Positions 9,118 through 40,622 are shown, counted from the first letter of the whole stretch. The stretch: DNA of 60,640 nucleotides, filler included, from 5 parts of 5 records of this genome joined end to end with filler, not necessarily neighbours in it; one strand, 5' to 3'. Notes: a model not told the origin generated them from the sequence alone. Numbers and translations: made by a program.

Positions 9118-9217
9118 NNNNNNNNNNNNNNNNNNNNNNNNNNNNNNNNNNNNNNNNNNNNTTAATTAATTAANNNNNNNNNNNNNNNNNNNNNNNNNNN
9201 NNNNNNNNNNNNNNNNN
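9118..9217. other. Artificial contig spacer (N44 + TTAATTAATTAA + N44)
   Basis: Six-frame stop linker flanked by Ns; base composition changes abruptly across it. Confidence 0.99.
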
Positions 9218-15180: not shown

Positions 15181-17083
15181 TTATTTTATGCTTGTCATTG
15201 AATAGGGTGCATCCTGCGGATCAGCTCCCAACTCTTTGTTTGGTTCGGCACCCATCTTCATTACAATATGTCCACCATCTTTGATGACAGCATGATCAAA
15301 CCAGGGCTTGGTCCACTCTTTTCCATTTATTGTAACCGATTGAACATAAATATTTTCCTCAGAGGCATTCTGGGCTTCCAGGACAAAGGTTTTACCCGCA
15401 TAAAAACGGTCGTCAAGGTGAATGGTCACCTTTTCAAATATCGGACTACCAAAGACATACTGTGTGGTTCCCGGACAGACAGGATAAAATCCCATACTGC
15501 TGAAAATAAGCCACGCAGACATCTGGCCGGCATCATCATTTCCGCTCAAGCCTGCCGGTCCGGTGTTATAATTTGCTATCATGGCTTTTCGAACCTGTTC
15601 CTGAGTTTTCCATGGCGCGCCGGCGAAACTGTAGAGATAGGGGATTTGATGACTTGGTTCATTGTCCTGACGGTAAAATCCCTGTGCAAAGAATGTATCC
15701 AGTTTTTTAATAAAGGTTTGACGGTCACCCATCAGGTCAATCAGGCCCTGGACATCATGAGGAACGAACCAGGTATAAACCCAGGGTGTGGCCTCTGTGA
15801 TGTACTTGTGATTTTTACCCGGATCAAACTGGGCATCCCAGCGACCATCTCTGTGGCGACCTCGTACAAAGCCTGTGGATATATCAAACACATTTTTATA
15901 AAAGAATGCCTGGTTTTGAAATTTCTTATAATCACTCTTTTTCCCTAATTCTTTGGCAAATTCAGCAAGGCAGAAATCATCATAAGCATACTCCAGTGTT
16001 CTGGAGACCTGTTCCCCTTTGTGGAACGCTTCCAATACCGGATTTTCCATTGGGATGTAACCCAGCTGTAAATAATCATCAAGCGCCCGCCGACCTTTTC
16101 CGTCCACATAATCCGCCTTATTTTCAGGCATTTCAGTTGCATTTTTACGCATATATGAAAAAGCCTTTTCCGTATCAAAGTCCTGAAAACCTTTTTTATA
16201 TGCGTCAACGATCATGGAAATACAATGATCGCCAATCATCTCAGTTGTATAGCTGTTCCATGAAGGAAAAATGGGTAACCACCCTCCCTGGTCCGCCTTG
16301 ACCAGTAAGGATTGAATCATGTCCTTTATTAATACCGGCTCTAAAATTAATAAAAGAGGATGCTGAGCGCGAAACGTATCCCACATGGAATAGTCATCAT
16401 AATAAGTAAAAGACGTTGCCTTGTGTACGTCGTTATCGTCAGCAAAACCAACATAGGAACCATCCGCATCACCGAAAACACGAGGCAGCAGCAGGGAGTG
16501 ATAAAGGGCTGTATAAAAGTTTGTTTTTGCTTCTTCATCTGAACTCTGCACTTCTATTTTTCCTAAAGCGTCCTGCCAGGTTTTTTTTGCGGTATTTTTA
16601 ACAGTTTCAAAATCCCATTCCTGATTTTCTGCGTCGAGATTTTTTCGTGCCTGTTCGATGCTTGTAAAGGAACATCCGATTTTGACTTCAACCACATCAC
16701 CTGCTTTGGTATCAAATTTAATATAAGCGCCTGGTTGGCCTTTTGTTTCTGTACTATTTGTATTTGTCTCATTTTCCGTCCAGGTGCCAAAAGTTTTAAA
16801 AGGTTTACTGAAACGAGCGACAAAATGCCCGCTGAAACCGGCTGGCTTACCTGTGCTGATATAATATCGAAAAGCCGGGTTCGAGCCGACAATTTCGTTT
16901 TTCTCCGGAATAACCTGAACAAAGGCATCTCCATGAGTATGTGGTGCTTTTGGGGTATTATTTGGTTGCACCAATATATAAGCGCTATCCGTCTCTGGAA
17001 AAGTAAACCGAAGATAGCCGGTTCGTAAGGTGCTGGTACATTCCGCTTTTATTTGATAATCCTGGAGCGCGACACTATAATAA
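15181..17083 (-). CDS. Glycoside hydrolase family 92 (alpha-mannosidase-like), 5' truncated at contig end
   Basis: FYTALYH, SMWDTFRAQHPL, EMIGDH, SRTLEYAYDD, NEPSH, GNDDAGQMSAW; frame stays open to the contig edge. Confidence 0.93.
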
Positions 17084-17183
17084 NNNNNNNNNNNNNNNNN
17101 NNNNNNNNNNNNNNNNNNNNNNNNNNNTTAATTAATTAANNNNNNNNNNNNNNNNNNNNNNNNNNNNNNNNNNNNNNNNNNNN
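17084..17183. other. Artificial contig spacer
   Basis: N44-TTAATTAATTAA-N44. Confidence 0.99.
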
Positions 17184-17185
17184 AG

Positions 17186-17443
17186 TATGCCGGTTATACC
17201 CATGAGGCTTCAGGGCATAACCCGAGAAGTAAGACCAAAGAACGGGTAAAAAGACGTTTTTACCACAAATTAAGTTATCAATACGTTAACCAGGATGGTC
17301 ATCCTGGTTGTGTAGGGTGTGGTCGTTGTATAACTGTTTGTGAGGCTTTTAATTTACTGGATATCGCAGCAGTCGTGAAACGGTTACGGCGTGGTGATTT
17401 ACTAGAATCAAGTAACAAGACTTTTGAAACGTCACCCGCCTGA
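17186..17443 (+). CDS. C-terminal part of an AsrA / sulfhydrogenase-beta / FlxB-like 4Fe-4S dicluster protein (not in the ORF track)
   Basis: Translated by eye: YAGYTHEASGHNPRSKTKERVKRRFYHKLSY...GCVGCGRCITVC...ETSPA*. GHNPR, R..HK and CVGCGRC are typical of AsrA-like subunits. Confidence 0.85.
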   Translation, partial: YAGYTHEASGHNPRSKTKERVKRRFYHKLSYQYVNQDGHPGCVGCGRCITVCEAFNLLDIAAVVKRLRRGDLLESSNKTFETSPA

Positions 17444-17518: not shown

Positions 17519-18343
17519 ATGGAAAATATTTATCTGCCGCAACTTGCCAGCATTGATCATATTACGGATGAAACGCCTGATACAAAAACCTTTACCCTGC
17601 ATTTTTTGGATCCGGGTTTTAATGATAAATTCCGCTTTAAATCAGGCCAATTTGCAGAGATCTCCGTGTTCGGTATCGGTGAAGCGCCCTTTGGTTTCAG
17701 CTCAAATCCGTCCAGACATGGGAGTTTTGACGTTACTGTTCGAGCCATCGGCAGTGTAACGGATGCCATGCACAAGATGAAACCTGGAGATATTCTGGGT
17801 GTACGTGCACCGCTTGGGAATCATTTTCCTTTTGAAGAAGCCCAGGGATATGATATTCTTTTTGTTGCCGGCGGTATAGGACTGCCACCACTAAAATCAC
17901 TCATAGAACCAATGCTGGATAAACGAGGTGATTTTGGAGAATTCACTATTTTATATGGTTCTCGTACACCACAAGACCTTGTTTTTAAACCCATTTTAAA
18001 CGAATGGACGGAACGCACAGACGTGAATGTTTTACAAACAGTGGATCGAGCCGATAATGGTTGGACTGGAAATGTTGGAGTTGTAACAACCCTTTTTGAA
18101 AATATAAAATTGGACGTATCAAAAACAGTTGCTTTTACGTGCGGCCCCCCTATTATGATCCGTTTTGTTATTCAGGAATTACTGGCAATGGGTTTATCTG
18201 AGCGCTGCATTATTTCAACTCTTGAAAGACAAATGAAATGCGGTGTTGGAAAATGCGGGCACTGTGCAATTGGCAATCAATATATTTGTGTCGATGGTCC
18301 GGTTTTTTCATATGAACAAATGAAAAAATTACCTGAAAAATAA
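17519..18343 (+). CDS. AsrB / sulfhydrogenase-gamma / FlxA-like FAD, NAD(P) and 2Fe-2S protein
   Basis: GQF...GEAPF, AGGIGLPPL, YGSRTP, CGPPIM, ERQMKCGVGKCGHC...CVDGPVF. Confidence 0.9.
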   Translation: MENIYLPQLASIDHITDETPDTKTFTLHFLDPGFNDKFRFKSGQFAEISVFGIGEAPFGFSSNPSRHGSFDVTVRAIGSVTDAMHKMKPGDILGVRAPLGNHFPFEEAQGYDILFVAGGIGLPPLKSLIEPMLDKRGDFGEFTILYGSRTPQDLVFKPILNEWTERTDVNVLQTVDRADNGWTGNVGVVTTLFENIKLDVSKTVAFTCGPPIMIRFVIQELLAMGLSERCIISTLERQMKCGVGKCGHCAIGNQYICVDGPVFSYEQMKKLPEK

Positions 18344-18346
18344 TTT

Positions 18347-18847
18347 ATGAGTGGATTGGATTTCACATCACGTTTACGTTCATTACTGGATGGAAAAAAA
18401 GTCGTATTGATGGGAATTGGTAATCCGTATAGAGGTGATGATGGTGTCGGTACTCTTTTAGCGGAAAAAATCGGATCCCATCATCATTTCGTCAGTATTG
18501 TCTGTGAAGAAATGCCTGAGAATTATACAGGCCTGGTTCGTGCAGAAAATCCGGATGTTATTCTTTTCGCTGACGCGATAAATTTTGGAGGAAAACCCGG
18601 TCAAATCGTCTTTCTTGATCCTAAAAATCTAACAGACGATCGGTTTTCTTCACATCGTCCATCATTACGATTGATCATGGATTATCTGAAAATTGAGACT
18701 AACGCAGAGGTCATATTGTTAGGCATACAGCCAGGAACGATAAACCATACATCTCAATTAAGCCCTGCTATTGAAGAAACATTAAATAAGCTTGTAAAAA
18801 TAGTGGTGGAGCTATCCCAAACTATCAATGAGGATTGGACTCGATGA
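18347..18847 (+). CDS. hycI: Hydrogenase maturation endopeptidase (HycI-like)
   Basis: GIGNPYRGDDGVG, PEN, DA, SSH, LLGIQP. Confidence 0.88.
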   Translation: MSGLDFTSRLRSLLDGKKVVLMGIGNPYRGDDGVGTLLAEKIGSHHHFVSIVCEEMPENYTGLVRAENPDVILFADAINFGGKPGQIVFLDPKNLTDDRFSSHRPSLRLIMDYLKIETNAEVILLGIQPGTINHTSQLSPAIEETLNKLVKIVVELSQTINEDWTR

Positions 18848-20304
18848 TAACATTTATCATGTTAATGATTCTTTTTCCTGCTCTGGGAGCTGTTCTGGCC
18901 GGATTAACAAAACGTAAATTAAGTGATTTAATTGCCTTCTCAAGTGTTACACTTATGTTTATAGTAGCTCTTGTTTTTGTCGTTTCTAATGGATTTAATC
19001 AATTTGTGAAAAATGTCCCTATCGGGTTACCCTGGCTAAATGATCTAGGAGTCTATGGTTTATTTGGCTACCAGATTGATAGTCTGTCTCTGATCTTGCT
19101 TTTGGTAGTTGTCACTCTGGGATTCCTTGTTGTTCTTTACGGGCTCGGATATCTCGGTGTCGGCAACAAAGAACATTCATCAGCCGAAGGTAAAGAACGG
19201 CATCATTTTTGGATGCTTTTGTTTATAGCTTCTATGATTGGAGTGGCCATTTCTCCGAACCTTTTACAACTCTATGTTTTTTGGGAGATGACGACACTTT
19301 GTTCCTGGGCTCTTATTTCACATTATCGTGATGACAAATCGTTACGAGCCGGCTTTAAGGCTCTGCTTATGACTTTTTCAGGAGGCCTTTTCTTTGCCCT
19401 GGCCCTGGTAATTATTTTTGTAAATACACATAGTTTTGAATTTTCAGCTCTTAATGAATTGTCCCCTCAACTTCGTGGTTGGATATTCCTCTTTTTTCTT
19501 ATTGCGGCCTGGGCCAAATCAGCACAAATTCCATTTTTCACCTGGCTGCCTGATGCCATGGCAGCTCCAACAACTGTTTCCATGTACCTGCATGCTGCTG
19601 CGATGGTAAAAGCAGGTGTTTTCCTCATTGCCAGAATCGCTATTGCCAACTCTTCCCTTTCTTTTGGTTCGGGACTTTTGGTAGGCATTATGGCTGTTTT
19701 AACAATGCTGATTTCTGTTTATCTCTTCTTTTATCAGGATGATCTCAAACGGCTGCTTGCCTATTCCACAATTGCCCATTTGAGTTACGTTTTATTAGGT
19801 GTTGGATTAGGTATAATGGGATCTGTAACTGGCTACCGCGGTGGAGTCATGCATATTATGAATCATGGGGTTGGTAAAGGTTTGCTTTTTCTTTGTGTGG
19901 GTGCTATAGCATACTCTACCGGTACTCGAAGTATAAAAGAATTAGGTGGTCTCGCTAAAAAATCACCTGTTATAGCTGTTGCTTTTTTTGCAGGCATGTT
20001 TGCTATTCTTGGCGTTCCACCCTTTTCAGGATTTTGGAGTAAATTTTATCTTCTAATTGGCGCAATCGACGTGGGCGGCACAGTCGGATGGCTTTTACTC
20101 ATTCCTTTTTTGCTTGAAATTATTGTCGCATTTGCATGGTTTCTGCGAGTCGGGCACTCTGTCTTTTTTGGTGCTGTAACACCGGCGCTCGCAAATAACA
20201 GTAAATTACCTTTTACTATTTCTGTGCCGCTCGTTGTAATGACCATTCTTACATTGGTGGCTCCTTTTATTGCCTTGTCACTGGTTAATTATATTGTTCA
20301 ATAG
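18844..20304 (+). CDS. hyfD: Antiporter-like membrane subunit of group 4 hydrogenase (HyfD/NuoL-like)
   Basis: WEMTTLCSWALI, AKSAQIPF..WLPDAMAAPT.VS.YLHAAAMVKAGVFL, DLKRLLAYSTI; ATG 18844 overlaps the hycI stop. Confidence 0.82.
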   Translation: MITFIMLMILFPALGAVLAGLTKRKLSDLIAFSSVTLMFIVALVFVVSNGFNQFVKNVPIGLPWLNDLGVYGLFGYQIDSLSLILLLVVVTLGFLVVLYGLGYLGVGNKEHSSAEGKERHHFWMLLFIASMIGVAISPNLLQLYVFWEMTTLCSWALISHYRDDKSLRAGFKALLMTFSGGLFFALALVIIFVNTHSFEFSALNELSPQLRGWIFLFFLIAAWAKSAQIPFFTWLPDAMAAPTTVSMYLHAAAMVKAGVFLIARIAIANSSLSFGSGLLVGIMAVLTMLISVYLFFYQDDLKRLLAYSTIAHLSYVLLGVGLGIMGSVTGYRGGVMHIMNHGVGKGLLFLCVGAIAYSTGTRSIKELGGLAKKSPVIAVAFFAGMFAILGVPPFSGFWSKFYLLIGAIDVGGTVGWLLLIPFLLEIIVAFAWFLRVGHSVFFGAVTPALANNSKLPFTISVPLVVMTILTLVAPFIALSLVNYIVQ

Positions 20305-20355: not shown

Positions 20356-22418
20356 ATGAATTCAATAACACTTTTTCAATATTCTGTCGGCTTTTTATTA
20401 CTCGGAGCATTGACAACCTTTTTACTGTCACGACAGCGTCAGTTGATCAGCAAACTTGCTTTTGTTTTTGCCTTTATTTCATCAATCGGTATTTTCTACA
20501 TTGTCATGGATGTTTTTCTTTACGGTCCAATAGAGACCTCTCAACCTCTATGGCAGCTGCCAGACTTAATGCCAGCTTGCTTATCAGAATAGATTTTCTC
20601 AGCGCTGTTTTTTTGACTCTTGTGGCAATTATTAGTATTCTCGCCACTCTGTATGCCTACCAGTTTTTAAAATTACCGGTGTTTAAAGAATTTAGCCTGG
20701 GTCGATTCTATTCCCTGCTTTTGGTCTTTTTTGCAGCCGTCTTGTCCATCGTTGTCATGGCTGATATGTTTTTCTTTTTTATTTTCTGGGAGATCATGAC
20801 CCTCTCATCCTATGCTCTTGTCATATTCAATAATACCCGCAAAGAATATCTCAAAGCTGGTTTTAAATACTTTTTCATAACTCATATCGCAACGGTTCTT
20901 ATGTTTATTGGTGCGATTATTCTGTATTTACATGGTGATTCTTTTTCTTTTAAGGATATTGGCGCTACAATGTCGGTATTGCTACAAACAAATCCCAATC
21001 TCCTCCACCTTGCTCTCTTGTTTTTCTTTATCGGATTCTCCACAAAAGCAGGCATTTTACCTATGGGAGACTGGTTACCCGATGCATACCCCTCAGCACC
21101 AACACCTGCCGGAGCGGCATTTGCTGGAATTATGTCGAAACTTGGCATTTATGGTTTGCTTCGTGTTTTTCTTTTCATTCTACCTATTTCATCTATTTGC
21201 CGTAATTGGGGTATATTTATAGCCATAATGGGCATCATTTCAATATTTGTTGGTTCTCTGTCAGCACTGATGCAGGATGGAGCCAAACGCTTGCTATCAT
21301 TTTCAATCATTGGACAAATGGGTTACCTCTTATTGGGTATAGGTGCCACATTATACGTTCTTGAGCAAAATCGAGTACTGGCCTTTATCATGCTGGTGGC
21401 AACGCTCTTTCATCTGATTAACAATGTTTTCTTTAAAGCAAATCTGTTCTTTAATGCCGGCACCATATACTATCGTACAGGTTCAGAAAACCTGAGCGAA
21501 ATAGGCGGTTTGGGTCGAATTATGCCATTAACGGCTGTTACAGCTATTATTGCTGCCTTTTCTATGTCTGGCGTTCCCCTATTTGCAGGTTTTTCCAGTA
21601 AATGGATGTATTTTATCACAACGGTCAACATTGGACTTGGCTCACCTGCCATTATGGGTTTCTCCATAGTAGCTCTTTTTATATCGGTCGTCACATTAGC
21701 CTATTCTATTAAATTTTTTGGCGCTGCTTTTTTTGGCAAATTCCATCCGGGTAAAAACATGACTAACAAAAAGACGCCTTTATCAATGCAGATTCCGCAG
21801 ATTGTGTTAGCTTTTTTTGCTGTATTGCCAGGATTATTGCCCCTTTTATTTATAAAACCGTTGGGACAAACAGTCGCATCTTTATTAACTGATGTCCCGG
21901 ATCCATTTCGCTCGAACACTGTCTTTAGCGGAATAACCATTCCATTTGGAGAAAACACATTCGTAACCTGGAATCCAATCCTTTTGTCCATTGTAGGCAT
22001 TATCGCCTTTTTGATTGCATTTTGGTTTTTCAGAGCAGGAGCCGCACCAAGGCGAGTTGATTCCACCTGGTATTGTGGTGAAGAACACACAGACGAAGAG
22101 GTTTTTTATCCCTCTTTAAATTTTTATAAATCATTTACCTCTATGCTTCGGCTCAGAATAGGTAATTTTGAGCAGGAAGGTGTCTATCCAAAATTAAAAT
22201 ATCCATCAATTACCTTTTCAGAAAAGGACATTTTGAAAAGAGTGTTAAATATCGACAAATGGCTTTACGATCCTATTGTCAAAGGTTTTATGTTCACTAT
22301 GCATAAATTTAGCGCCTTACATAGTGGCGTTCCACATGTCTATTTACTCTGGTTGGTTATCGGCGCTTTGGCAGCGATAGCTGTCTTATTTTTACTTACT
22401 GCTAACGGTGCCCAATAA
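20356..22418 (+). CDS. hyfB: Antiporter-like membrane subunit (HyfB/HycC-like), frameshifted near 20557-20565
   Basis: ORF 20356-20592 gives the N terminus and 20550-22418 the remainder: WEIMTLSSY, KAGILPMGDWLPDAYP.APTP, TWYCG, LHSG.PHVYL. Confidence 0.8.
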
Positions 22419-22482
22419 TTTTTATTGTCAGTTGCAAATAAAAAAGATTATCCATTATTTTCCAATTTAGGAGGAAAACCTG

Positions 22483-24168
22483 GTGACCACCTCTGATTTA
22501 ATAACCTATCTGCAAAAGCGATTTGGCGAAAAAATCATAAAAGCAGAGACACCTGTTCACGATATGGCTATGATTACCATCGGTCGGGACGATTCTGTTA
22601 CCATCAACAAACACCTGTTTCATGATATGGGAGCTCGCTTTGTGGTTAGTGTCGGTACAGATTACAGAGAAGCTGGAGATGGATTTCTGGTTGACTATGT
22701 ATATTCACTTGCAGCGGATCATCTGTTTTTGACTATTCGTCAACCTGTGCCAGAAGATGATCTATGGGTTAATGCACTGACCGGTGACGCGAAAATGCCT
22801 GCTACAGGATGGGCTGAACGGGAAATCCAGGATTTGTTAGGTATAATAATGCGTAACCATCCGGATCCTCGAAAACTTGTACTTTCCGATGATTGGCCTG
22901 AAGGTCTCCATCCGTTACGCCGGGACGTGCCCCATGACATTCATCCACCCAGCGATCTAAATTGTGCTATGCCACGGAAAGAAAAACCAAAAGGCTCTAC
23001 TGTGGTACCCATTGGACCCTTTTATCCCGTTCTCGAAGAACCGGCATATTTCAGACTCTTTGTAGAAGGAGAAAAAATTGTCGGTGGTGATTACAGAGGA
23101 TTTTATAATCACCGTGGCATTGAAAAAATAGCGGACAGTCAGTTAAATTACAACCAGATACCCTTTCTGGCTGAACGAATATGCGGTATATGAGGGACAG
23201 TGCACAGTACGGGGTACTGTCAGGCAGTTGAAAAAGCAGCAGATATTCAAGTTCCAGCCAGAGGACGGTTCATTCGAACAATCCTTCTTGAACTGGAAAG
23301 AGTTCAAAGCCATTTACTCTGGCTGGGTATTGCCGGTCATATTATAGGCTTTGATACAGTCCTCATGCAGGCGTGGCGTATTCGTGAACCTGTTATGTGG
23401 CTGTGCGAAAAAATAACCGGTAACAGAAAACTGCTCGGAATGAATATTGTAGGTGGTGTCCGGCGTGATATTCCGCAAGATGTCCATGGTGAACTATTGC
23501 AAGTGCTCGATAAAGTTGACAAAGAGACAAAAGCGGTTTTAAATGCCATTGTCACAGATACAACTCTTTTGATGCGATGCGAAAACGTCGGTGTGATCTC
23601 TAATTCGGATGCTATTGCGCTCTCGCTACTCGGTCCGACTGCACGCGGCTCTGGTGTAGCGATTGATATCAGAAACGATCACCCTTATGCCGCTTACGCT
23701 GAAGTTGGTAGTGAAATGATGGTCGAAACAACTGAAGACATTTGGGCTCGAGTTGTTGTGAGACTTAAAGAAACGGTTGAATCAATCAGACAAATAAAAG
23801 ATGCGCTAGCAATGATGCCCAAAGGGCCCGTTGTGGCAACTATCAAAGATCCAATTCCTCCGGGAAAGACCGGTGTTTCCTCTGTGGAAGCTCCGAGAGG
23901 GGAAACACATCATTTTGTCATCACTGGTGAAGATAGCAGACCATATCGCTGGAAGGCCAGAGCTCCCACCTTTCAAAATTTACAAGGTGTCCCGGTAATG
24001 CTGGCTGGCGAGACAATTGCGGATGCACCTATCGGACTTGGAAGTATGGATCCCTGTTTTTCTTGTACCGAAAGACTGGAAACTGTGGATATCAGCAGCG
24101 GAAAAATAACTGTGTATTCAAAAACAGATCTTTACGAGTTGTCTAAAAAGAAATACCAACGTCGTTAA
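22483..24168 (+). CDS. hyfG: Group 4 [NiFe]-hydrogenase large subunit (HycE/HyfG, NuoC+NuoD fusion), 561 aa if TGA 23191-23193 is read through, probably as selenocysteine
   Basis: ORFs 22483-23193 and 23200-24168 are in the same frame and join as ERICGI-(TGA)-GTVHSTGYCQAVE, i.e. the RxCGxC..H L1 motif. C-terminal L2 motif DPCFSCTER is followed by a 30-aa cleavable extension. EAPRGE and HRGIEK motifs present. Confidence 0.9.
23191..23230 (+). promoter_or_regulatory. Putative bacterial SECIS element after an in-frame UGA
   Basis: ACAGTAC-GGG-GTACTGT (23204-23220) is a perfect 7-bp stem with a G-rich loop, starting 11 nt after the TGA (loop 17 nt downstream); it can extend through TGC/GCA and CAG/TTG. 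Confidence 0.72.
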
Positions 24169-24247
24169 AATACGAATAATTCATGAAACAGATGCCTGGG
24201 AAGAAGATTCTAAAACACGGGCATCCTATCGAAGTCATGGAGAAATA

Positions 24248-25164
24248 ATGAACTATTCCACTGGTGAACTGATTGGATTTAGTTTTTTAAATGTATTTCT
24301 TGTCTTAATGTTATCTCCTTTACTTGAAGGCATTATTCGTAAACTTGTGGCATTCGTGCATTCCCGCATCGGACCACCTGTTTACCAGCCTTACCTGGAT
24401 ATTCTCAAACTTTTGGGCAAGGAAGAGATCGTCAGCTCCAACAGTTTTTTATTTCGGTACAGTGCCGTGTTCGCATTTACAGCTGTTTTGGTAACAGCAG
24501 TATTGATTCCAATTGGCGCCCGCCCCCTTTGGAAAATGCCGGCGAAATACTGGTATTCATTTATGTTATCACTTTTTCCGCTATCATGGTTATCATGAGT
24601 GGCATTTCATCAGAAAATCCCTACGGAATCGTGGGTGCGGCACGTGAAATGATGATGGTTTTGACAGTGGAACCAGTTATAGTGATCGCTCTTATCACAG
24701 CTGCCGTTAAATCCGGTTCAATGCGATTTGGAGACATGATGGTTTATCAAACGGAACATGGACTTTCTCTCTCCATGATCATTGTTGGTATTGTTCTGTT
24801 TTTATCCATTGTCGCACAACTCGCGCGTTTGCCTTTTGATATTGTTGAAGCTGATCAGGAGATTATGGAGGGACCCTTTATAGAACAAAGCGGACCCAAA
24901 TTGGCCCTTTTCAAATGGACTTTTTACGCCAAGGAACTTGTGTTTGCCTCAATTTTTGTGTCTGTATTTGTGCCATGGCCTCATACGGGTCAATTTCTTC
25001 TTGATTTCCTGTTTTCTTTGTTAAAAATACTCGTTCTCCTGGTGTTTGTAGGTGTTGTGCATGTCGTAAATCCACGATTACGTATTGATCAGGCAGTACG
25101 GTATTTTGTGATTCTTATTTTTGTGGCTATTATTGGATTGGCTTTTGCTGTGGTTGGTTCCTGA
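24248..25164 (+). CDS. hyfC: NuoH-like membrane subunit (HyfC/HycD), frameshifted in the C-run at about 24523-24527
   Basis: GIIRKLVAFVHSRIGPPVYQPYLDILKLLGKE, then in a shifted frame GAARE...EP...RLPFDIVEADQEIMEGPFIEQSG. Confidence 0.87.
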
Positions 25165-25265
25165 TTTAAAACGAGATTTCTTTTAGTTTTGTATTCAAGA
25201 ATTTTATATCCACGACTCTACATATTCAAAGTAAAATGTGCTGAACCTTTTTAAGCGGATTTAAC

Positions 25266-25760
25266 ATGTTTAAAGCAAAAATCAAAGAAGCGGCTATTTG
25301 TTTCTCAAATCCTCGTGTAACCTTGCCTTATCCATTTGGTGAAGGTTCTGAAATTCCGGAAGGATTCAGAGGCAAGATTGATATTGATGAAACGAAATGT
25401 ATTGCGTGCGGAGGATGTGCTAATGTATGTCCTTCACGGCTCATCCGATTCTATGATAATAATATTGAGACGCGTATGGAATTTATTCTGGATCGGTGCA
25501 CGTATTGTGGTCGATGCGCAGAGGTGTGTCCTGAGGAAGCCATTCAGATGACTCTCGAGTTCGAGACAGCAACCAATGATAAAACAGATCTCTATATCGA
25601 ACAAAATCTCTACATGGCGACCTGTGCCAGATGCGGCCGTTGTTTTGAAACTGAAAATGCCATCGACCGTATCCCCACACGACGTCACAGAGAAGGACGG
25701 AATTATCTCGGCCCATCCATGCCGTACGGAGCACCCAAAGTAAAGGAGGCAGGTAAATGA
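25266..25760 (+). CDS. hyfH: 2x[4Fe-4S] subunit (HyfH/HycF/NuoI-like)
   Basis: TLPYPF, FRGK, CIACGGCANVCP, CTYCGRCAEVCP, CARCGRC. Confidence 0.88.
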   Translation: MFKAKIKEAAICFSNPRVTLPYPFGEGSEIPEGFRGKIDIDETKCIACGGCANVCPSRLIRFYDNNIETRMEFILDRCTYCGRCAEVCPEEAIQMTLEFETATNDKTDLYIEQNLYMATCARCGRCFETENAIDRIPTRRHREGRNYLGPSMPYGAPKVKEAGK

Positions 25761-26422
25761 CTGAACAGACGCTTGTCACCCTGACATTAGCGATTCTGAT
25801 AACTTCTATCGCTGCCGTAGAGATAAGGAATTTACGTACAACAACATTTGCCTATTTATTGCATTCGATTTTCCTGTGCGGAATCATCCTAAGTTATGCT
25901 TATATAAAAGACAATGAAAGTCTCTACCTCTGGGCGATATCCTGTTTTGTGACAAAAGTAACAATCATCCCTTATATGCTGTTTCGCTTTATAAAACAGG
26001 TTCCGCAAAGAGAACATCAACCGATCATTGGATCAGGCTTGTCAATCGTAATCGTCTCCACGCTTATGATCGTTTTCTTCCAATTGTTTAAAAAGTACAT
26101 CTTTTTGCTGGCACCTACAGAAAGCGCGCAAATGGAGCCTGTCCGGAGTTTGCTTGCCGGTGCATTTACGATTTTTTCTCTTGGATTATGGGCATTGCTC
26201 GTACGACGTGATGCTCTAAAGACAGTCATTGGCATTGCGTTGCTGGAAAATGGCGTTCATCTTGTTTTGCTGGCACTGACTCCGCAACTCCGTGAAACCA
26301 CGATGATTGGGATATTAACAAATGTTGTTGCTGTCGTCTTTTTACTCCTTTATTTAAGTACAAGTATCTACCAGGTATTCGGATTTACAGATACTGTTAA
26401 ACTTTCAGAGCTGAAGAGATAA
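25757..26422 (+). CDS. hyfE: HyfE-like membrane subunit
   Basis: Hydrophobic, TK..IIP, LLENGVHL motif; ATGA overlap with the upstream gene. Confidence 0.82.
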   Translation: MTEQTLVTLTLAILITSIAAVEIRNLRTTTFAYLLHSIFLCGIILSYAYIKDNESLYLWAISCFVTKVTIIPYMLFRFIKQVPQREHQPIIGSGLSIVIVSTLMIVFFQLFKKYIFLLAPTESAQMEPVRSLLAGAFTIFSLGLWALLVRRDALKTVIGIALLENGVHLVLLALTPQLRETTMIGILTNVVAVVFLLLYLSTSIYQVFGFTDTVKLSELKR

Positions 26423-26433
26423 CGAGGTTACTT

Positions 26434-27954
26434 ATGGCTGAACCCATTCAGTCTTTTTTACCCATGATTTTGATCCTGCTTCCAATAGTTGGAGCCATTT
26501 TCACTGTTTTGTTGGGCTATAGCAAGATCAAAAATGCACGTGAAATCAGCACGTTAGTCATTCTGGTTATCGAGTTTGCTGTTGCCATCAGGGTCGGTGC
26601 TCTTGTCCTGGCGGGCAATACGCTTGCTGCCCTGGGTAACGCCATCTTTATTGACGGACTGAGCGCCTTGATGATTGTATTGGTAGATGGAATGGTTATC
26701 CTGATTACCCTGCAATCATTCAAATACATGAAGCGTGAACAGCAGCATGGACTTTTTAGCGAAGGCAGACTCACTCTCTACTATGCCCTTGTCCTGCTAT
26801 TCACAGGTACTATGAATTGGACAGTAAGTACGAACCACATGGTCATGCTTTATGTAGCAATGGAAGGTACGACATTAGCCACTGCTTTACTCGTCGCCTT
26901 TTACCGTAAAAAAGCATCCCTTGAAGCAGGTTATAAATACGTCCTTTTAGTGGTAGTCGGGATTACTTTTGCGTTGTTCGGTATTGTCCTCATTTTTGCT
27001 GCCGCCTATCCTCATTTAGAGGTTGGTTCCCACGCCCTTCTGTTAACAGAAATAGGCACTATTGCCAAGCTGATACCCAAAAATATCGCCTTGCTTGGTA
27101 TTGCTTTTATGACCGTTGGATTTGCAACAAAAGCGGGTCTTGTTCCCTTTCATGCATGGCTACCGGATGCTCATTCTGAAGCACCTTCACCTATCAGTGC
27201 CTTGTTATCCGGCCTGATTATTAAAATTGGTGCTTACGCCCTCGCCCGGACGGTAACGATTTTCGCACCAACATATCATTCTGTTATCGTTTTCATTGCC
27301 ATTCTTAGTTCCATTAGTATGTTAATTGGAATTTTTATGGCATTTGTACAGGATGATCTCAAACGTATGCTGGCCTTTTCCAGTGTGAGTCAAATCAGTT
27401 ACGTATTCGAGGGTTTAGGCCTTGGAACTTATCTCGGCATTTATGGCGGACTATTCCATCTTGTAAATCACACGCTGATTAAAGGTTTGCTTTTTATGAG
27501 TATTGGCGCTGTTATGTATGCCACCGGTGGATTACGAAAGATATCCCAGCTTGGTGGCTTGTCTAAAAAAATGCCAATTACAGCCTTTTGTTTTATCGTT
27601 GGAGCCCTGTCCATTGGCGGTTTGCCTCCATTTAATGGTTTTATGAGTAAATTTACAATTTTCCTGGCTATTGGCGAAGAAAAGCTTTATTGGGCTATGG
27701 CGATTTCTGTTATAACCGGTGTGCTGACCCTGGGATGTTTGGTTTGGGCAGCCTATAGAGTATTCTGGCGAACTCCCAAAGTACCAGTACCAGGTAATGA
27801 AGGCGAATTAAAAGAAGTACCTTTTCTCATGTATGCCAGTATTGTTATTCTCGCTATTCTGTGCATTGTCATTGGTGTTTTTCCGCAAATTCTTCATCCT
27901 ATACTGGATGGTGCAACAAAAGCTGTTTTAGAAATTTGGGCTGTAGGAGGATAA
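26434..27954 (+). CDS. hyfF: Antiporter-like membrane subunit (HyfF/NuoM-like)
   Basis: MEGTTLATALLV, SLEAGYKY, TKAGLVPFHAWLPDAHSEAPSPISALLSG, GLPPFNGFMSK. Confidence 0.85.
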   Translation: MAEPIQSFLPMILILLPIVGAIFTVLLGYSKIKNAREISTLVILVIEFAVAIRVGALVLAGNTLAALGNAIFIDGLSALMIVLVDGMVILITLQSFKYMKREQQHGLFSEGRLTLYYALVLLFTGTMNWTVSTNHMVMLYVAMEGTTLATALLVAFYRKKASLEAGYKYVLLVVVGITFALFGIVLIFAAAYPHLEVGSHALLLTEIGTIAKLIPKNIALLGIAFMTVGFATKAGLVPFHAWLPDAHSEAPSPISALLSGLIIKIGAYALARTVTIFAPTYHSVIVFIAILSSISMLIGIFMAFVQDDLKRMLAFSSVSQISYVFEGLGLGTYLGIYGGLFHLVNHTLIKGLLFMSIGAVMYATGGLRKISQLGGLSKKMPITAFCFIVGALSIGGLPPFNGFMSKFTIFLAIGEEKLYWAMAISVITGVLTLGCLVWAAYRVFWRTPKVPVPGNEGELKEVPFLMYASIVILAILCIVIGVFPQILHPILDGATKAVLEIWAVGG

Positions 27955-27955
27955 T

Positions 27956-28389
27956 ATGCTCAAAAAACTTTGTGCAAAAGCTTTTCCCAAAGCATTATGG
28001 GTTTATCATACAAATTGTTCGGCGTGTAATGGTTGTGACATTGAAATTATTAATGTACTGACACCCTATTACGACGCTGAACGATTTGGAATTAAACTCG
28101 TTGGATCACCACGCCATGCCGATGTCTTACTAGTCACCGGTGGTGTCAGCAGGCAGATTGCTCCAGCCTTGAAACGGCTTTATGATGCAACCCCAAATCC
28201 AAAACTGGTTTTTGCTATAGGTTCTTGCGCATGTGGTGGTGATGTTTTTTATGATAGTTATAACATGTATGGTGCTGTAGACAAAAAAATTCCTGTGGAT
28301 TACTATGTGCCAGGGTGTCCTCCAAGACCGGAAGCAATTCTTTATGGAGTGGCAGTTGCGCTCGGTTTGGCTCCTAAAAAAGTGGCCAG
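27956..28389 (+). CDS. hyfI: Group 4 hydrogenase small subunit (HyfI/HycG/NuoB-like), 3' truncated
   Basis: CNGCDIE, GSPRHADVLLVTG, GSCACGG, PGCPPRP. Confidence 0.9.
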
Positions 28390-28489
28390 NNNNNNNNNNN
28401 NNNNNNNNNNNNNNNNNNNNNNNNNNNNNNNNNTTAATTAATTAANNNNNNNNNNNNNNNNNNNNNNNNNNNNNNNNNNNNNNNNNNNN
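28390..28489. other. Artificial contig spacer
   Basis: N44-TTAATTAATTAA-N44. Confidence 0.99.
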
Positions 28490-29206
28490 AAAAGGTGCCC
28501 CTGGCAATTCCGGAAATCATCCGCATGACCTCAATGGTCTGAAGGGCCAGTTCTTTTGACAATTTTTCCCTTGAGACAGCCCCCATGGAAAAGAGAATGG
28601 TTCCAAGCCGCTGACATGTGCTTTTCTGGCGTGAAAGCGCAGCAATGGCGTCTTTCCTGGCCAAAAGCTTTTTCTTTATCAATATAGATGCCAGCTTTTT
28701 GGATTTGGGCCTGTTTTTCCAATAAATATCCACAATTTCTCCGGCCGTGAAATGGATGGAGATTTTTTTCCATCCGCAGATGTGATATTCAGTTCCCCTG
28801 TCCGTTTCTGTATTTTTTTAAGATGTAAGAGATCGCCAATGGAATAATCTGTAAGTTTTCCCTTGGAAAGGGGTTCTCTGAACGTGGTGGAAATGACATC
28901 TGTGAAGCCGGTTTTCTCCTTTTTTAAACCAAAAACCTTGGTCATGCGGGCTCTTCTCAGATCTGCGTCTATTAACAGGACCTTGCTGCCCGACTGGGCG
29001 ATGGTATACCCCAGATTGATTGCCGTATTGGTCTTTCCCTCAGACTCAACAGAACTTGTTACGACCAATGAGGTTAATGGCTTATCCATTGAAAAAAAGT
29101 TGAGGTTGGTCAGGAGGGTTCTAAAGCTTTCTGCATAACTTGATTTGGCTGGAAAGTCCATCAATAGATTTCCCGTCTGCCGTTTAGAGTTTTTAAACAA
29201 TTTCAT
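28490..29206 (-). CDS. CpsD/CapB-type BY tyrosine kinase with an inserted DUF4388/MshEN-like region; frameshift at T-run 28763-28769; 3' truncated
   Basis: AESFRTL.TNL, VTSSVESEGKT (Walker A), LIDADLRR, then GKLTDYSIGDLL...RTGELNI...ISIHFTAGEIV...RLGTILFSMGAVSREKLSKELALQ. Confidence 0.8.
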
Positions 29207-29209
29207 GAT

Positions 29210-30706
29210 TTAGATCCATAGTCAACAGATTTGCTCGCAATGGGTATCACTGAAAGTACCGGAATACCAATGTTTTTCTGAACATCCTCTTCGGTCCGGA
29301 TGGTCTGGTCCATATATTCAAAAAGCGCCACAAAAATACCCCGCCCACAACCCCCAGGGTGACGCCGATAAGAATGATGGCTATTTTATTGGGGCTGACA
29401 GGGCGGTGGGGGACCATTGCGCCTTCAACAAGGCGGATATTTGATGTATCATTGGTTTTTAATATATCGGATTCCTTGATTTTGGCCAAAAGCGTGTCGT
29501 AAAGGTGTTTGCTCGTATTCATGTTTCGTTGAAGTCTGGAATATTCCAGTTCATTGCCGCTGGTGTTCAAGGCATCCTGTTCAAATTCCTTGAGGGTCTC
29601 TTTTAATACCTTTTCCCTGGAATAGAGTACTGTTCTTTTGGCTTTAAGGCTGGCAAGCTCCCGTATAAGTTCTTCCTTGAGACGCATGGCATTTTTATCA
29701 AGTTCGTCCCGTATCTCTATGATCTTGGGATGTTTGTTTTTATAAATTTTAGACAGTTTGGCATATTGTATCTCAAGGTCTTTGACTTTTGCATAGACAG
29801 TACTGATCTCCGGATTTTCAACCAGGGAACGGATATTCCCAATCCCATGCCGGCCGCCGGCATGTTTTTCTATTTCCCTTATTTTTGTATCGATATCCAG
29901 CCTGCTGTGCCGGGTGGCCAGGTAATTGGAATTGAATTCCTTTAATTTCTGGTCTGCCATTTTATGCTTGCCTGCAATGGAAAAAAACTTGTTCGCCTGC
30001 ATGAAATCAAAGAATGTTTTTTCGTCTTTTTCAAGTTTATTTTTTAAGGCATAAAGTTCATTGTTCATCCATTCCAGATTCTTTTTAGATGACTTCATCT
30101 GGTTTGACAGGTTGAACCCGATATACTGGTCTGCAAAGGCATTTGCAATGAGGGCCGCCTGTTCGGGGTCCTTGTCTTTCACACGTATTTTAAGCAGCCT
30201 GGTTTCACCGATGCCTTCTATGGAGACGTTTGCTCTTATATCGGCGATCAGGCTGTTGGCGTTTTCCTCTGAGGTCCGGGGGGCTTTTCCCCCGTGTTCA
30301 ATAGATCCTTAATGTTTTGCCAGTATTCTGCACCACGTTTTTTAACCCGGTAAATGATATGATTTTCATCGGTACCTTCGGGTGCTTTGGCATCCAGATT
30401 CAGGACGTTGATCACCTGCTGAATGACGTTTTTTGAAAGAATCAGTTTAAAATGGGTATTAAAGGTGAGGGTTTCCGACTGATAACTTTCATATTCCATT
30501 CTCTGGCCGGTTATGGGGGAGGTGGGCCGTTCCTTTTCAATCATGATTGTGGATGTCGATTCGTAGACCGGCACCGCATAATAGGTATAGAGAACGGATG
30601 GGAACAGGCCAAGCATGAAAACAACAAAGAAAACCATTTTTCTTTTGTAAAAGATATCCAGACAATCGGCAATATGTAGAGCGTCGTTAAAGTCTTCGTC
30701 ATGCAT
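29210..30706 (-). CDS. Wzc/GumC-type polysaccharide co-polymerase (chain-length determinant), frameshifted near 30280 and 29330
   Basis: N-terminal TM + PVYESTSTI, ANAFA.QYI, coiled coil, Y..KHPKI, A.VP..PVSPNK and a second TM, assembled from ORFs 30248-30706 and 29247-30182. The 3' end is approximate. Confidence 0.8.
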
Positions 30707-35127: not shown

Positions 35128-36714
35128 ATGAATAAAGAAACCCAGATCCTTGGAAACAGCCTAAAAAATTCACATTTCCTGTCCGATGCAATTGCCTTAT
35201 CCATTAAGATGGCCATTGTCGGCGGTGGGGAAAACTGCAAGTTTGTTTTGGAACTTCTACGCAACGATCCCTTTCCCTTTTTGGATATTCAGATACTGGC
35301 AGTTTACGACAAGAGCCCGGATGCACAAGGCATTGGCCTTGCAAAAAAAATGGGGATATTTACAACAGATAACCTCCATGATCTGTTTAAGGTTGAAGGT
35401 CTGGACAGCATCCTTGAACTCACCGGCAGCAGAGACATCCTTCTTGAGATCATTCGCCTGAGGCCCAAAGGGGTCGGTGTGTTGGAATACAATATAGGCA
35501 GAATCCTGCAGAAGCTGTTTGATATGAATCAATGTTTGAAAACAGCACATCAGGACCTGAAAGCAACCGAAAAAGAACTTATAGCAGAAAAAACATTTTC
35601 CTCTTTCCTGATTCAGCAGAGTACGGCAGCAATTGTAATCATGAATCCGGATTTTACGATAATTGACGTAAATAAAGCCTATCTGAAAGCGGTGAATAAA
35701 CCAAAGGAAGAGGTGGTTGGAAAACCGTGTTATGAAATTTCCCATGGGGTGAATGTCCCGTGCTCAAGTGCTTTCCCCGGGGTTAAATGCCCCATGATAG
35801 AAACATTGAGAACCGGGAAAAATGTTCATGTGATTCACGATCACCAGGGGCCCGGGGGCAGGCCCATGTATTGCAACCTGACCACCTATCCCATAAAAAA
35901 TGATGACGGTGAAATTATACAGATTATCGAATTCTGGCGCGATGTATCAGATGAGTTTATAAACCGCTGGGATAAACAGGTCCGGGAAATGAAATCCGAT
36001 ATCCAGAAACTGGTCCAGGAGGATAGAATGATTTCTTTGGGAAAACTTGCGGCCAGTTGCGCTCACGAGATCAATAATCCCATTCAGGGGTTATTGACCT
36101 TTAGTCATTATATGCTGGATATCTTAAATGAAGGTGAATCAAGCCCTGATAGACTGGATGAATTCAAAGGTCACCTTTCTCTGATGTCAACGGAATTGGA
36201 GAGATGCGGGAATATTGTTTCCGGTCTGCTTTCATTTTCACGGGAGTCCAGTATTGAATACAAGCAGATCGACCTGAATGAGGTTATCAATTCCGTCCTT
36301 TCCCTGACCCGCCATAAAATGGAGCTGGGAAATATCCGCCTGACAACAGGATTGGCTTCTGAACCATTGATACTCAACGGCGATCTCAACCAGCTGCAGC
36401 AGTGTTTTCTCAATCTGATTTTTAACGCCATCGAATCAATGCCAGACAAGGGAGAGTTGACCATTATATCCGAACAGGATGAGGACGGGAAATCTGCCAA
36501 AGTGGAAATTCGCGATACAGGATACGGAATATCCGAAGAGAGCCGGGATAATCTGTTTGACCCTTTTTTTACGACCAAGGACGTGGGAGAAGGGACCGGT
36601 TTAGGATTGTCCATTGTTTACGGTGTTGTTAAAAACCATAAAGGGAAAATACGAATTGACAGTAAGGTTGGAGAAGGGACTGCATTCATCCTGAGATTTC
36701 CCATGCTGATTTAG
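35128..36714 (+). CDS. Cytoplasmic PAS histidine kinase (NtrB-like) with an N-terminal Rossmann-like domain
   Basis: AIVGGG at the N terminus, PAS with GKPCYE...C...CP, AHEINNP H-box, NLIFNA, DTGYGI, FDPFFTTK, GTGLGL. Confidence 0.92.
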   Translation: MNKETQILGNSLKNSHFLSDAIALSIKMAIVGGGENCKFVLELLRNDPFPFLDIQILAVYDKSPDAQGIGLAKKMGIFTTDNLHDLFKVEGLDSILELTGSRDILLEIIRLRPKGVGVLEYNIGRILQKLFDMNQCLKTAHQDLKATEKELIAEKTFSSFLIQQSTAAIVIMNPDFTIIDVNKAYLKAVNKPKEEVVGKPCYEISHGVNVPCSSAFPGVKCPMIETLRTGKNVHVIHDHQGPGGRPMYCNLTTYPIKNDDGEIIQIIEFWRDVSDEFINRWDKQVREMKSDIQKLVQEDRMISLGKLAASCAHEINNPIQGLLTFSHYMLDILNEGESSPDRLDEFKGHLSLMSTELERCGNIVSGLLSFSRESSIEYKQIDLNEVINSVLSLTRHKMELGNIRLTTGLASEPLILNGDLNQLQQCFLNLIFNAIESMPDKGELTIISEQDEDGKSAKVEIRDTGYGISEESRDNLFDPFFTTKDVGEGTGLGLSIVYGVVKNHKGKIRIDSKVGEGTAFILRFPMLI

Positions 36715-36753
36715 CGTCTGTATCATTTAACACCAGTATAATGGAATGAGACC

Positions 36754-38100
36754 ATGGATAAAAACCTGAGAATCATGATCGTAGATGATGAATTAATCGT
36801 CCGGGAATCCCTTGTGCGTTGGTTTGGAAAATATGGGTATATAGTGGAAAGTGCATCTTCCGGCGCAGAGGCACTTGGAAAACTTGAAAAACAACCGTTT
36901 CAGCTTTTATTTGTGGATATCAAGATGCCCGGGATGGACGGGTTGGAATTGCTGGAGAAAGTAAAGGATGAATACCCGGATACCATGGTCGTCATAATAA
37001 CGGCCTACGGATCCATTGAATCTGCGGTGAAAGCCATGCGGATCGGGGCCAGCGATTATCTGTTAAAACCCTTTAAACCCGACCAGCTCTCATTGGCAAT
37101 GGAAAGGGTTTTGTCCCAGAGAAAGCTGACATCCGAGTATCAGTATCTCAAAGACCATCTGGAAAAGATGACCCGGTTTGATAATATTATCGGCCAGTCC
37201 CCTCCCATGGAGGCTGTTTTTGAATTAATCCCGGAAGTGGCCGTCAGTGATGCATCTGTCCTGCTGACCGGAGAAACCGGCACAGGCAAGGAACTGGTTG
37301 CAAAAGCCATACATGCCAAAAGCCCCCGTGCCCATCTGCCCTTTATTGCCATCAATTGCGGCGCCATACCCGATACCCTGCTGGAGAGCGAACTTTTTGG
37401 GCATCAAAAAGGGGCGTTTACCGGGGCCATGAATGCCAGAAAGGGCTTTTTGGAAGTGGTTTCAGGCGGAAGCCTCTTTCTGGATGAAATCGGAGAGATC
37501 AGTCCTAAAATGCAGGTTGACCTTCTCAGGGTCTTGGAAGAAAAAAAGATAACCGCTATCGGATGCCGAAAGCCCGTTGATGTGGATTTTCGTCTTATTT
37601 CCGCAACCAGCCGGGATCTGGAGGATCGAATTGCGCACAACGCTTTCAGGGAGGATTTTTATTACCGCATCAACGTCATCCGGATTGATATCCCCCCTTT
37701 AAGGGATCGAAAAGAGGATATTCCCCTTTTAGTCGACCATTTCCTGGATAAATACAGTCATGAAACAACCAAACAGGTTGATCGTATTAAACCGGATGCT
37801 GTCAGACTGATGAAAAACTATGACTGGCCCGGGAATGTGCGGGAACTTGAAAATGCCGTTGAAAGAGCTGTTGTCCTGAGCAAATCCCGGACCCTTGGTG
37901 CTGAAGACTTTTCTTTTCTTCGGCCCTCCCAGATACCGGATTCAAGGTCTCTCTCTCTCAAAGAGGTGCAAAAGGCACATATTCTGCGGGTTTTGGAAGC
38001 ACATGATTGGAATATCACCCATTCTGCCAGACTTCTGGGAATCAACCGGGTTACATTGCATAAGATGATTAAGCGGGACAATTTAAAAAAAGACCATTGA
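36754..38100 (+). CDS. Sigma-54-dependent response regulator (NtrC/AtoC family)
   Basis: Receiver VDDE...DIKMPGMDG; GETGTGKE, GAFTGA, LFLDEIG, WPGNVRELEN; Fis-type HTH. Confidence 0.96.
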   Translation: MDKNLRIMIVDDELIVRESLVRWFGKYGYIVESASSGAEALGKLEKQPFQLLFVDIKMPGMDGLELLEKVKDEYPDTMVVIITAYGSIESAVKAMRIGASDYLLKPFKPDQLSLAMERVLSQRKLTSEYQYLKDHLEKMTRFDNIIGQSPPMEAVFELIPEVAVSDASVLLTGETGTGKELVAKAIHAKSPRAHLPFIAINCGAIPDTLLESELFGHQKGAFTGAMNARKGFLEVVSGGSLFLDEIGEISPKMQVDLLRVLEEKKITAIGCRKPVDVDFRLISATSRDLEDRIAHNAFREDFYYRINVIRIDIPPLRDRKEDIPLLVDHFLDKYSHETTKQVDRIKPDAVRLMKNYDWPGNVRELENAVERAVVLSKSRTLGAEDFSFLRPSQIPDSRSLSLKEVQKAHILRVLEAHDWNITHSARLLGINRVTLHKMIKRDNLKKDH

Positions 38101-40522: not shown

Positions 40523-40622
40523 NNNNNNNNNNNNNNNNNNNNNNNNNNNNNNNNNNNNNNNNNNNNTTAATTAATTAANNNNNNNNNNNNNNNNNNNNNN
40601 NNNNNNNNNNNNNNNNNNNNNN
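40523..40622. other. Artificial contig spacer
   Basis: N44-TTAATTAATTAA-N44. Confidence 0.99.

Follow-up and report, generated by a model that had tools for sequence, protein, structure and literature searches.

The stretch of DNA analysed here (the window, 60,640 nucleotides) carries on its plus strand the gene for the large, catalytic subunit of a membrane-bound, Hyf-type Group 4 hydrogenase, and the reading frame of this gene is interrupted by an in-frame TGA that we regard as a probable selenocysteine (Sec) codon. The features of the gene that bear on this interpretation, including a hairpin resembling a selenocysteine insertion sequence (SECIS), are as follows.

22483..24168, plus strand: large (catalytic) subunit gene, a NuoC-NuoD fusion of the HycE/HyfG-like type, 561 amino acids with predicted Sec237 on readthrough (from translation, Pfam and alignment with HycE)
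23182..23184, plus strand: codon of C234, the first position of the N-terminal motif
23191..23193, plus strand: in-frame TGA, residue 237, the second position of the N-terminal motif, predicted Sec
23204..23220, plus strand: core of the SECIS-like hairpin, stem ACAGUA(C) with (G)UACUGU, loop CGGGG or GGG
24049..24075, plus strand: C-terminal Ni-binding motif DPCFSCTER, all Cys (C525 and C528; residues 523-531)
24076..24165, plus strand: 30-residue C-terminal extension after R531, with cleavage predicted by analogy with E. coli HycE

The translation of 561 residues contains one internal stop, the TGA at residue 237, which lies inside ERIC234-G-I-*237-GTVH. When this stop is read through, the N-terminal (L1) motif RxCGxCxxxH of [NiFe] hydrogenases is matched as ERIC234-G-I-U237-GTVH240, with the TGA in the place of the second Cys, which in these enzymes is the Ni-Fe bridging position. 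Pfam domains PF00329 (NuoC-like), PF00374 (NiFeSe_Hases, its N-terminal part at residues 211-280) and PF00346 (NuoD-like) are recognized in the protein, while in NCBIfam the large subunit of the window scores below every cut-off. Of the solved structures, E. coli HycE (7z0s_E) is the best match (E 2.9e-114 over residues 41-556), and the full-length alignment places the TGA opposite the second Cys of the HycE motif RVCGICG (RVCGICGFAH); the large subunit was also aligned with 6cfw_L of Mbh (E 1.1e-73). At the other end of the protein the DPCFSC of the C-terminal (L2) motif is encoded with TGT codons and without a stop, and the canonical DPUxxC was not found there. By analogy with HycE, the extension behind this motif would be removed after R531 by a HycI-like protease. 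An initial annotation of this DNA had described the same single TGA at the second L1 Cys and the same 561-residue readthrough product, and our retranslation and HycE alignment reproduce both; its intact all-Cys L2 motif and maturation extension are likewise present, as DPCFSCTER followed by 30 residues.

The TGA codon also ends genes of the same contig at 18847, 25164 and 25760. Because these ends match those of the homologues in L003, a related locus of the genome collection, TGA is an ordinary stop on the hydrogenase contig, as the initial annotation had also held. A genome-wide reassignment of UGA was considered as a candidate and is ruled out, since 16 of the 44 long stop-to-stop frames in the window end in TGA, including the three genes of the hydrogenase cluster just mentioned. 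The codon itself was followed into separate assemblies. A Logan contig of sequencing run X1 (word depth 32.3), the probable source run of the window, shows 0 other letters over 22400-25300 and keeps the TGA, and in X4, which belongs to another study, a contig of 151 nt covers 23107-23254 with no difference listed at the codon; the contigs of X2 and X3 begin or end at the codon and hence are uninformative on it. We therefore take the TGA as confirmed, that is, as real and not an error.

A TGA at this codon recurs in independent genomes, a comparison that the initial annotation had proposed. Species-representative genomes were scanned and the best 80 of 199 related stretches were taken, which together with the window gave 81 sequences. 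These comprise 23 sequences of the CxxU type (22 loci and the window), 5 UxxU, 1 UxxC and 52 CxxC, so that TGA stands at one or both motif cysteines in 28/80 loci and TGC or TGT in 52/80. All stops that were explicitly checked at the two motif codons are TGA; eight loci, in which the motif is QQICGICG, were read through a tblastn step. In every locus where the L2 motif was found, this motif is all-Cys and without a stop, and the stretch from the recoded codon to the motif is free of further stops. The same codon leaves its trace in protein databases, where the initial annotation had expected pipelines to split the gene in two. Among 120 listed relatives of the N-terminal piece in a large protein collection, 71 end in RxCGx and 36 in ERx, so that the recoded codon is the end of 107 of the 120; the others are 12 Cys-type fragments and 1 of another kind. 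This listing gives no Sec-to-Cys ratio, because the search admitted only proteins of 129-413 residues.

The part of the gene behind the TGA is conserved as well. Against five members of the same clade, the amino-acid identity is 0.71-0.78 downstream of the codon (324 codons) and 0.63-0.77 upstream of it (228-230 codons), with a nonsynonymous divergence (dN) of 0.19-0.23; synonymous divergence (dS) is saturated, so only dN and identity are usable. Judged by its sequence, the region 3' of the TGA is translated. In a quick maximum-likelihood tree of 80 rows, from which the partial L037 was left out, the window adjoins L001 (78% identity) within a clade of 20 CxxU sequences (SH-aLRT 98), and the nearest locus of the genome collection is thus at most 78% identical to the window sequence. 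The sister of this clade is a pair of CxxC loci, L019 and L020. The tree requires at least three changes for CxxU and two to three for UxxU. The labels within the 20-sequence clade are KSB1, Calditrichota and, doubtfully, "Cytophagia": several of the loci L005-L017 are titled 'uncultured Cytophagia bacterium', at odds with their place among KSB1 sequences in the tree, and this label is probably an artefact of submissions of metagenome-assembled genomes (MAGs).

The rarer motif types form a separate observation. The single UxxC locus (L050:10679-10722, Deltaproteobacteria bacterium RBG_13_43_22) has TGA at the first Cys and TGT at the second; it falls in the same HycE-like clade, as sister to the UxxU locus L070, and its hairpin is identical. 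In the main text of Takano and colleagues (Takano, Inoue, Aono, Ochi, Mihara, Front Microbiol, 3 Sep 2026, PMC13582414), UXXC forms are placed in Group 4e only. The five UxxU loci (L049, L057, L061, L070 and L074) have two TGAs at a distance of 9 nt, with one copy of the same hairpin behind them, and come from MAGs labelled Dehalococcoidaceae, Desulfobacteraceae and 'Proteobacteria'.

The hairpin lies immediately behind the TGA. Its stem begins 10 nt after this codon, and the distance from UGA to the loop is 16-17 nt; the usual rule for bacterial SECIS elements is 16-37 nt. In the window the stem has 7 bp (23204-23210 with 23214-23220, loop GGG, -7.7 kcal/mol), whereas the reading shared by the relatives has 6 bp (ACAGUA/UACUGU) with a loop CGnnn, which is CGGGG in the window, where an extra C-G pair can form. 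A G thus stands first or second in the apical loop, shortly 3' of the UGA. This conserved loop G is G23211, the third base of a Thr codon ACG (23209-23211) that is invariant in 28/29 TGA-bearing sequences. By inspection, the string CAC AGT ACG nnn TAC TGT occurs in 28/29 TGA-bearing sequences and in 0/52 Cys-type sequences. The exception, L080, has a different hairpin at the same place, and in L019, the nearest Cys-type locus, the hairpin persists only weakly (-2.2 kcal/mol, z 0.14). The constraint is also evident at the level of the whole gene. Over 337 informative columns of the 20-sequence clade, conserved residues have a mean majority-codon frequency of 0.598. The six-column stretch with the highest value in the gene, HSTYCQ (0.98), adjoins the TGA on its 3' side, which makes this the place of strongest synonymous-site constraint.

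The machinery for Sec insertion was sought in the five related genomes that contain L003, L009, L018, L013 and L010. A tRNA-Sec above the Rfam cut-off (68.5-73.4 bits) is present in 5/5 of them, in each case with anticodon tca (UCA) and a discriminator G after the acceptor stem; 8 of 52 listed matches to the tRNA-Sec model were inspected. According to Takano et al. (PMC13582414), a UCA tRNA with discriminator G or A is SelC, while one with U is tRNA-ReC, and by this criterion the UCA/G tRNAs of the related genomes are SelC. SelA, SelB and SelD all score above their cut-offs in 5/5 genomes, and a separate SelD copy with a single in-frame TGA occurs at least once in each genome (twice in G001). 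As a side observation, G001-G005 each also have a long fused SelD-like open reading frame (ORF) of 738-823 amino acids without an internal stop.

The genes around the large subunit, all on the plus strand of the same contig, are listed below.

17186..17407, plus strand: SHI-beta-like Fe-S subunit, 3' remnant (about 74 last codons), cut by the contig start at 17184
17519..18343, plus strand: SHI-gamma-like FAD/NAD(P)-binding Fe-S subunit
18347..18847, plus strand: hydrogenase maturation endopeptidase, HycI family (TIGR00072)
18835..20304, plus strand: antiporter-like membrane subunit, HyfD-like (above the NCBIfam cut-off)
20356..22418, plus strand: antiporter-like membrane subunit, HyfB-like, in two ORFs
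24248..25164, plus strand: HycD/HyfC/NuoH-like membrane subunit, split in the window
25266..25760, plus strand: 2x[4Fe-4S] subunit, HyfH/HycF/NuoI-like
25757..26422, plus strand: HyfE-like membrane subunit
26434..27954, plus strand: antiporter-like membrane subunit, HyfF-like
27956..28389, plus strand: NuoB/HycG-like small subunit, truncated at 28389 by the contig end

The set expected of a Group 4 cluster is therefore present, with NuoB-, NuoI- and NuoH-like proteins, antiporter-like subunits and a maturation protease. The protease scores 94.8 bits against the TIGR00072 superfamily model (cut-off 47.45) and 94.6 bits against the hycI equivalog, which is below the cut-off of 119.1. HyfB, HyfE, HyfF and HyfH are the best-scoring NCBIfam names of their genes, each below its cut-off; only the HyfD-like protein exceeds its own.

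Several irregularities of this cluster reflect how the window was put together. Because spacers made of an N-run, TTAATTAATTAA and a second N-run stand at four sites (9118-9217, 17084-17183, 28390-28489 and 40523-40622), the window is a set of joined contigs, and the hydrogenase contig is 17184-28389. The TTAATTAATTAA spacer has stops in all frames. A GH92 gene (15181-16974), the SHI-beta remnant and the small subunit are all cut by contig ends at spacers, and ORFs that cross a spacer, such as 27956-28441, are artefacts. Within the contig, the C-run at 24523-24527 counts five C in the window record and six in the independent X1 contig. With the sixth C, the ORFs 24248-24598 and 24529-25164 become a single NuoH/HycD-like gene, and the split of this gene is therefore an error of the record. 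The HyfB-like gene is also divided, into ORFs 20356-20592 and 20550-22418, with a frame change near 20565 where there is no homopolymer; in L003 it is a single ORF of 692 amino acids, and the frame change in the window may be an error, a real frameshift or a sign of two genes.

In L003 a molybdopterin gene resembling formate dehydrogenase (Fdh-like) and a full SHI-beta-like gene lie upstream. The Fdh-like gene and the full SHI-beta gene are missing from the contig of the window because the contig boundary falls at 17184, not through a deletion; loss of this module and decay of the operon were considered and are ruled out by the spacers and by the extra C of the X1 contig. Going by the arrangement in L003, an electron-input module of SHI-beta/gamma and Fdh-like proteins probably continues beyond the contig end. 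Directly downstream of the L003 cluster (L003:16019-20523) there are two proteins with [FeFe]-hydrogenase-like and HisKA/HATPase domains together with a response regulator, and these, from their domains, might act together as a two-component sensor of H2 or redox state; weaker relatives of the L003 [FeFe]/kinase proteins (34-41% identity) lie at about 35956-37137 of the window, in another contig piece. In a further piece, at 28679-30706 on the minus strand, Wzz, GNVR and P-loop (AAA_31) domains are spread over three consecutive ORFs. These three domains usually belong to one Wzc-type tyrosine kinase, and the layout suggests more indel errors or real breaks in that piece. Rfam at gathering thresholds gave 0 matches in the window, and ARAGORN found 0 tRNAs in it.

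Taken together, we consider it very likely that the TGA at 23191-23193 codes for selenocysteine, in a membrane-bound Hyf-type Group 4 hydrogenase of an uncultured sediment-type bacterium. In the mechanism that we propose, SelB with Sec-tRNASec(UCA) would be recruited by the short hairpin that starts 10 nt 3' of the UGA, Sec would be put in at residue 237, and the ribosome would go on to complete the 561-residue large subunit. Given the Ni-Fe bridging role of the second motif position, the mature site is predicted to be Ni(mu-Se-Sec237)(mu-S-Cys528)Fe, with Cys234 and Cys525 as terminal ligands. The predicted partners of this subunit in the complex are the NuoB-like small subunit, the 2x[4Fe-4S] protein, the NuoH-like and HyfE-like proteins and the three antiporter-like membrane subunits. 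The initial annotation had arrived at a Group 4 [NiFeSe] hydrogenase as well, and the comparative analyses of these sequences support that interpretation.

A number of points weigh against this reading. A tblastn search of the window with the SelA, SelB and SelD locus ORFs as queries gave no match, and the evidence for the Sec pathway comes from five related genomes and not from the organism of the window. Support for the codon comes from assembled contigs, not from raw reads, and the X1 contig is not fully independent, because X1 is probably the source sample; the window record, moreover, has at least one homopolymer indel error (24523-24527). None of the sequencing runs listed with this sequence is an RNA run. 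As to the hairpin, the initial annotation had called it SECIS-like. The conserved 7-bp stem and its link to TGA bear this out, but the fold of the single sequence is unremarkable (8-bp stem, z -0.83, 40/200 shuffles as good). The hairpin is thermodynamically modest (z -0.83 and -1.54, equalled by 21-40 of 200 shuffles), and shuffle z-scores across folds are weak, from -0.8 to -2.2. The alignment fold, in which L080 is out of register, has no compensatory support either: the stem is invariant and both sides change in 1/6 pairs. With almost no compensatory change, the case for the structure rests on synonymous-site conservation and on the association with TGA. Finally, the class is known purely computationally, the work of Takano et al. 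included, and sequence alone does not distinguish Sec from Cys.

This last point is what gives some room to a hairpin-aided readthrough of the UGA that inserts Cys, through tRNA-ReC (selC*) or a tRNA mis-charged at low selenium, and so yields an all-Cys [NiFe] site. Takano et al. (PMC13582414) raise this possibility themselves, and by their count about 17% of Sec-type genomes, mostly those with UXXU, contain tRNA-ReC-like genes; in Sec-type genomes other than UXXU, however, the frequency is only about 2.3%. In all five related genomes, moreover, the sole match above the Rfam cut-off is the UCA/G tRNA, the next matches examined (3 loci, 43.4-46.4 bits) are tRNA-Ser, and SelA and SelD occur alongside. 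We therefore regard Cys insertion as improbable. Still less probable, in our judgement, is that the UGA simply terminates translation, so that the locus is a pseudogene or encodes two polypeptides, one of 236 amino acids and one from the GTG at 23200. Gene callers do give exactly this split, and adjoining genes of the window look broken; but the break is always an in-frame TGA at the same metal-ligand codon in 23 CxxU sequences whose relatives have Cys, the downstream part is as well conserved as the upstream part, and a second polypeptide would be without the L1 ligands. Nor do the neighbours speak for decay, since the NuoH-like split is an indel of the record and the flanking genes are truncated where the contig ends. 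That faulty sequencing or assembly turned a TGT or TGC into TGA, a possibility that the homopolymer error at 24523-24527 and the unexplained frame change near 20565 might bring to mind, has in our view next to no likelihood: the X1 assembly has the same letters at its depth, 22 other loci have TGA at the same codon in separate assemblies, and the known errors of the record are indels, not substitutions.

Accepting Sec at the bridging codon, the different motif types can be considered together. The element CACAGUACGnnnUACUGU follows a UGA that lies 10 nt before the stem in CxxU sequences, 19 nt before it alone in the UxxC locus L050, or at both distances in UxxU sequences. We tentatively suggest, with slightly less than even confidence, that one fixed hairpin CACAGUACGnnnUACUGU programmes Sec at two registers, with the UGA 10 nt or 19 nt before the stem. 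If this is true, CxxU, UxxC and UxxU would form a natural allelic series on one SECIS, bridging Sec would have been fixed in the KSB1/Calditrichota-like clade (20/20) by selection and not by drift, and Sec-bridged enzymes would be far commoner than the roughly 0.2% reported from NCBI proteins.

The initial annotation had known of no characterised example of this kind of enzyme. As a class, such enzymes are now in the literature: Takano et al. (PMC13582414) set out CXXU, UXXC and UXXU types of Group 4 [NiFeSe] hydrogenase in silico, with KSB1 among nine phyla, in a set of 47 sequences. They also report the loop G as the third base of a Thr codon ACG and an enrichment of selABCD, and the paper contains no experimental work. 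Its 4e Sec forms are UXXC of Desulfobacterota and its 4g forms CXXU of Thermodesulfobiota. The window gene shares with the 4b CXXU type of that paper the Sec at the second N-terminal Cys, the all-Cys C-terminal motif and the loop G in ACG. The 4b type is further described with a Hyf-like cluster containing SHI-gamma/beta and Fdh-like genes and with co-occurring Sec genes; by comparison, the contig of the window has SHI-gamma and about 74 codons of SHI-beta, while all three genes are found in L003. From these assignments and the phylum list of the paper, which includes KSB1, the large subunit of the window probably belongs to subgroup 4b. The window gene thus joins an already described, computationally known class of Group 4 [NiFeSe] hydrogenases, and the earlier caveat that this class has no characterised member stands. 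With the class published in September 2026, the value of the window lies in confirmation and extension, not in discovery; relative to Takano et al., our analysis adds a gene-wide scan of synonymous constraint and a larger count from species-representative genomes. It also bears on annotation in general. Pipelines split the gene into "NuoC" and "NuoD" pieces, and hydrogen metabolism is therefore under-called in KSB1-like, Calditrichota-like and other uncultured lineages.

Comparison with better-known hydrogenases shows where the window enzyme would differ. E. coli HycE (7Z0S/7Z0T) and Hyf share with it the NuoC-NuoD fusion, the L1 and L2 motifs and the C-terminal extension, but all four ligands in HycE are Cys, and it is the formate dehydrogenase of the E. 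coli formate hydrogenlyase, rather than its hydrogenase, that is a selenoprotein. The canonical [NiFeSe] enzymes (Group 1a Hys of Desulfovibrio/Desulfomicrobium and Group 3 Vhu/Fru of Methanococcus) have in common with the window a UGA-encoded Sec ligand and a SECIS. Homology to them is weak and limited to the L1 region (5jsu_B, E 2.4e-10), and the window differs in group, in its NuoC-NuoD fusion and membrane module, and in physiology. In the canonical enzymes Sec replaces the first C-terminal Cys (DPUxxC), a terminal Ni ligand, whereas in the window it would occupy the bridging N-terminal position. The initial annotation had placed natural Sec at the C-terminal motif, which is true of Hys and Vhu/Fru, although an N-terminal CXXU is reported as an exception in two sequences of Group 1 and one of Group 3 (Baltazar et al. 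2011, cited in PMC13582414).

In its chemistry, a selenolate that bridges Ni and Fe is unlike the terminally bound Sec of the [NiFeSe] enzymes that have been well studied, and we know of no natural bridging-selenolate hydrogenase that has been purified. These genes would therefore offer a natural test of selenium at the bridging position in an energy-converting hydrogenase, whose predicted physiological direction is proton-reducing and ion-pumping. The closest experimental parallel is the engineered variant C79U of E. coli Hyd-1, which like the window protein has Sec at the second Cys of the N-terminal motif, and this enzyme was assembled and active (Evans et al., PNAS 2021, PMC8020662). It retained 13% of native H2 oxidation, the highest of four single Sec variants, and was almost inactive at 10% O2. 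Hyd-1 is, however, a Group 1 O2-tolerant uptake enzyme whose Sec was introduced at UAG through an engineered system dependent on EF-Tu (PMC8020662), unlike the window gene, in which Sec would be inserted naturally at UGA.

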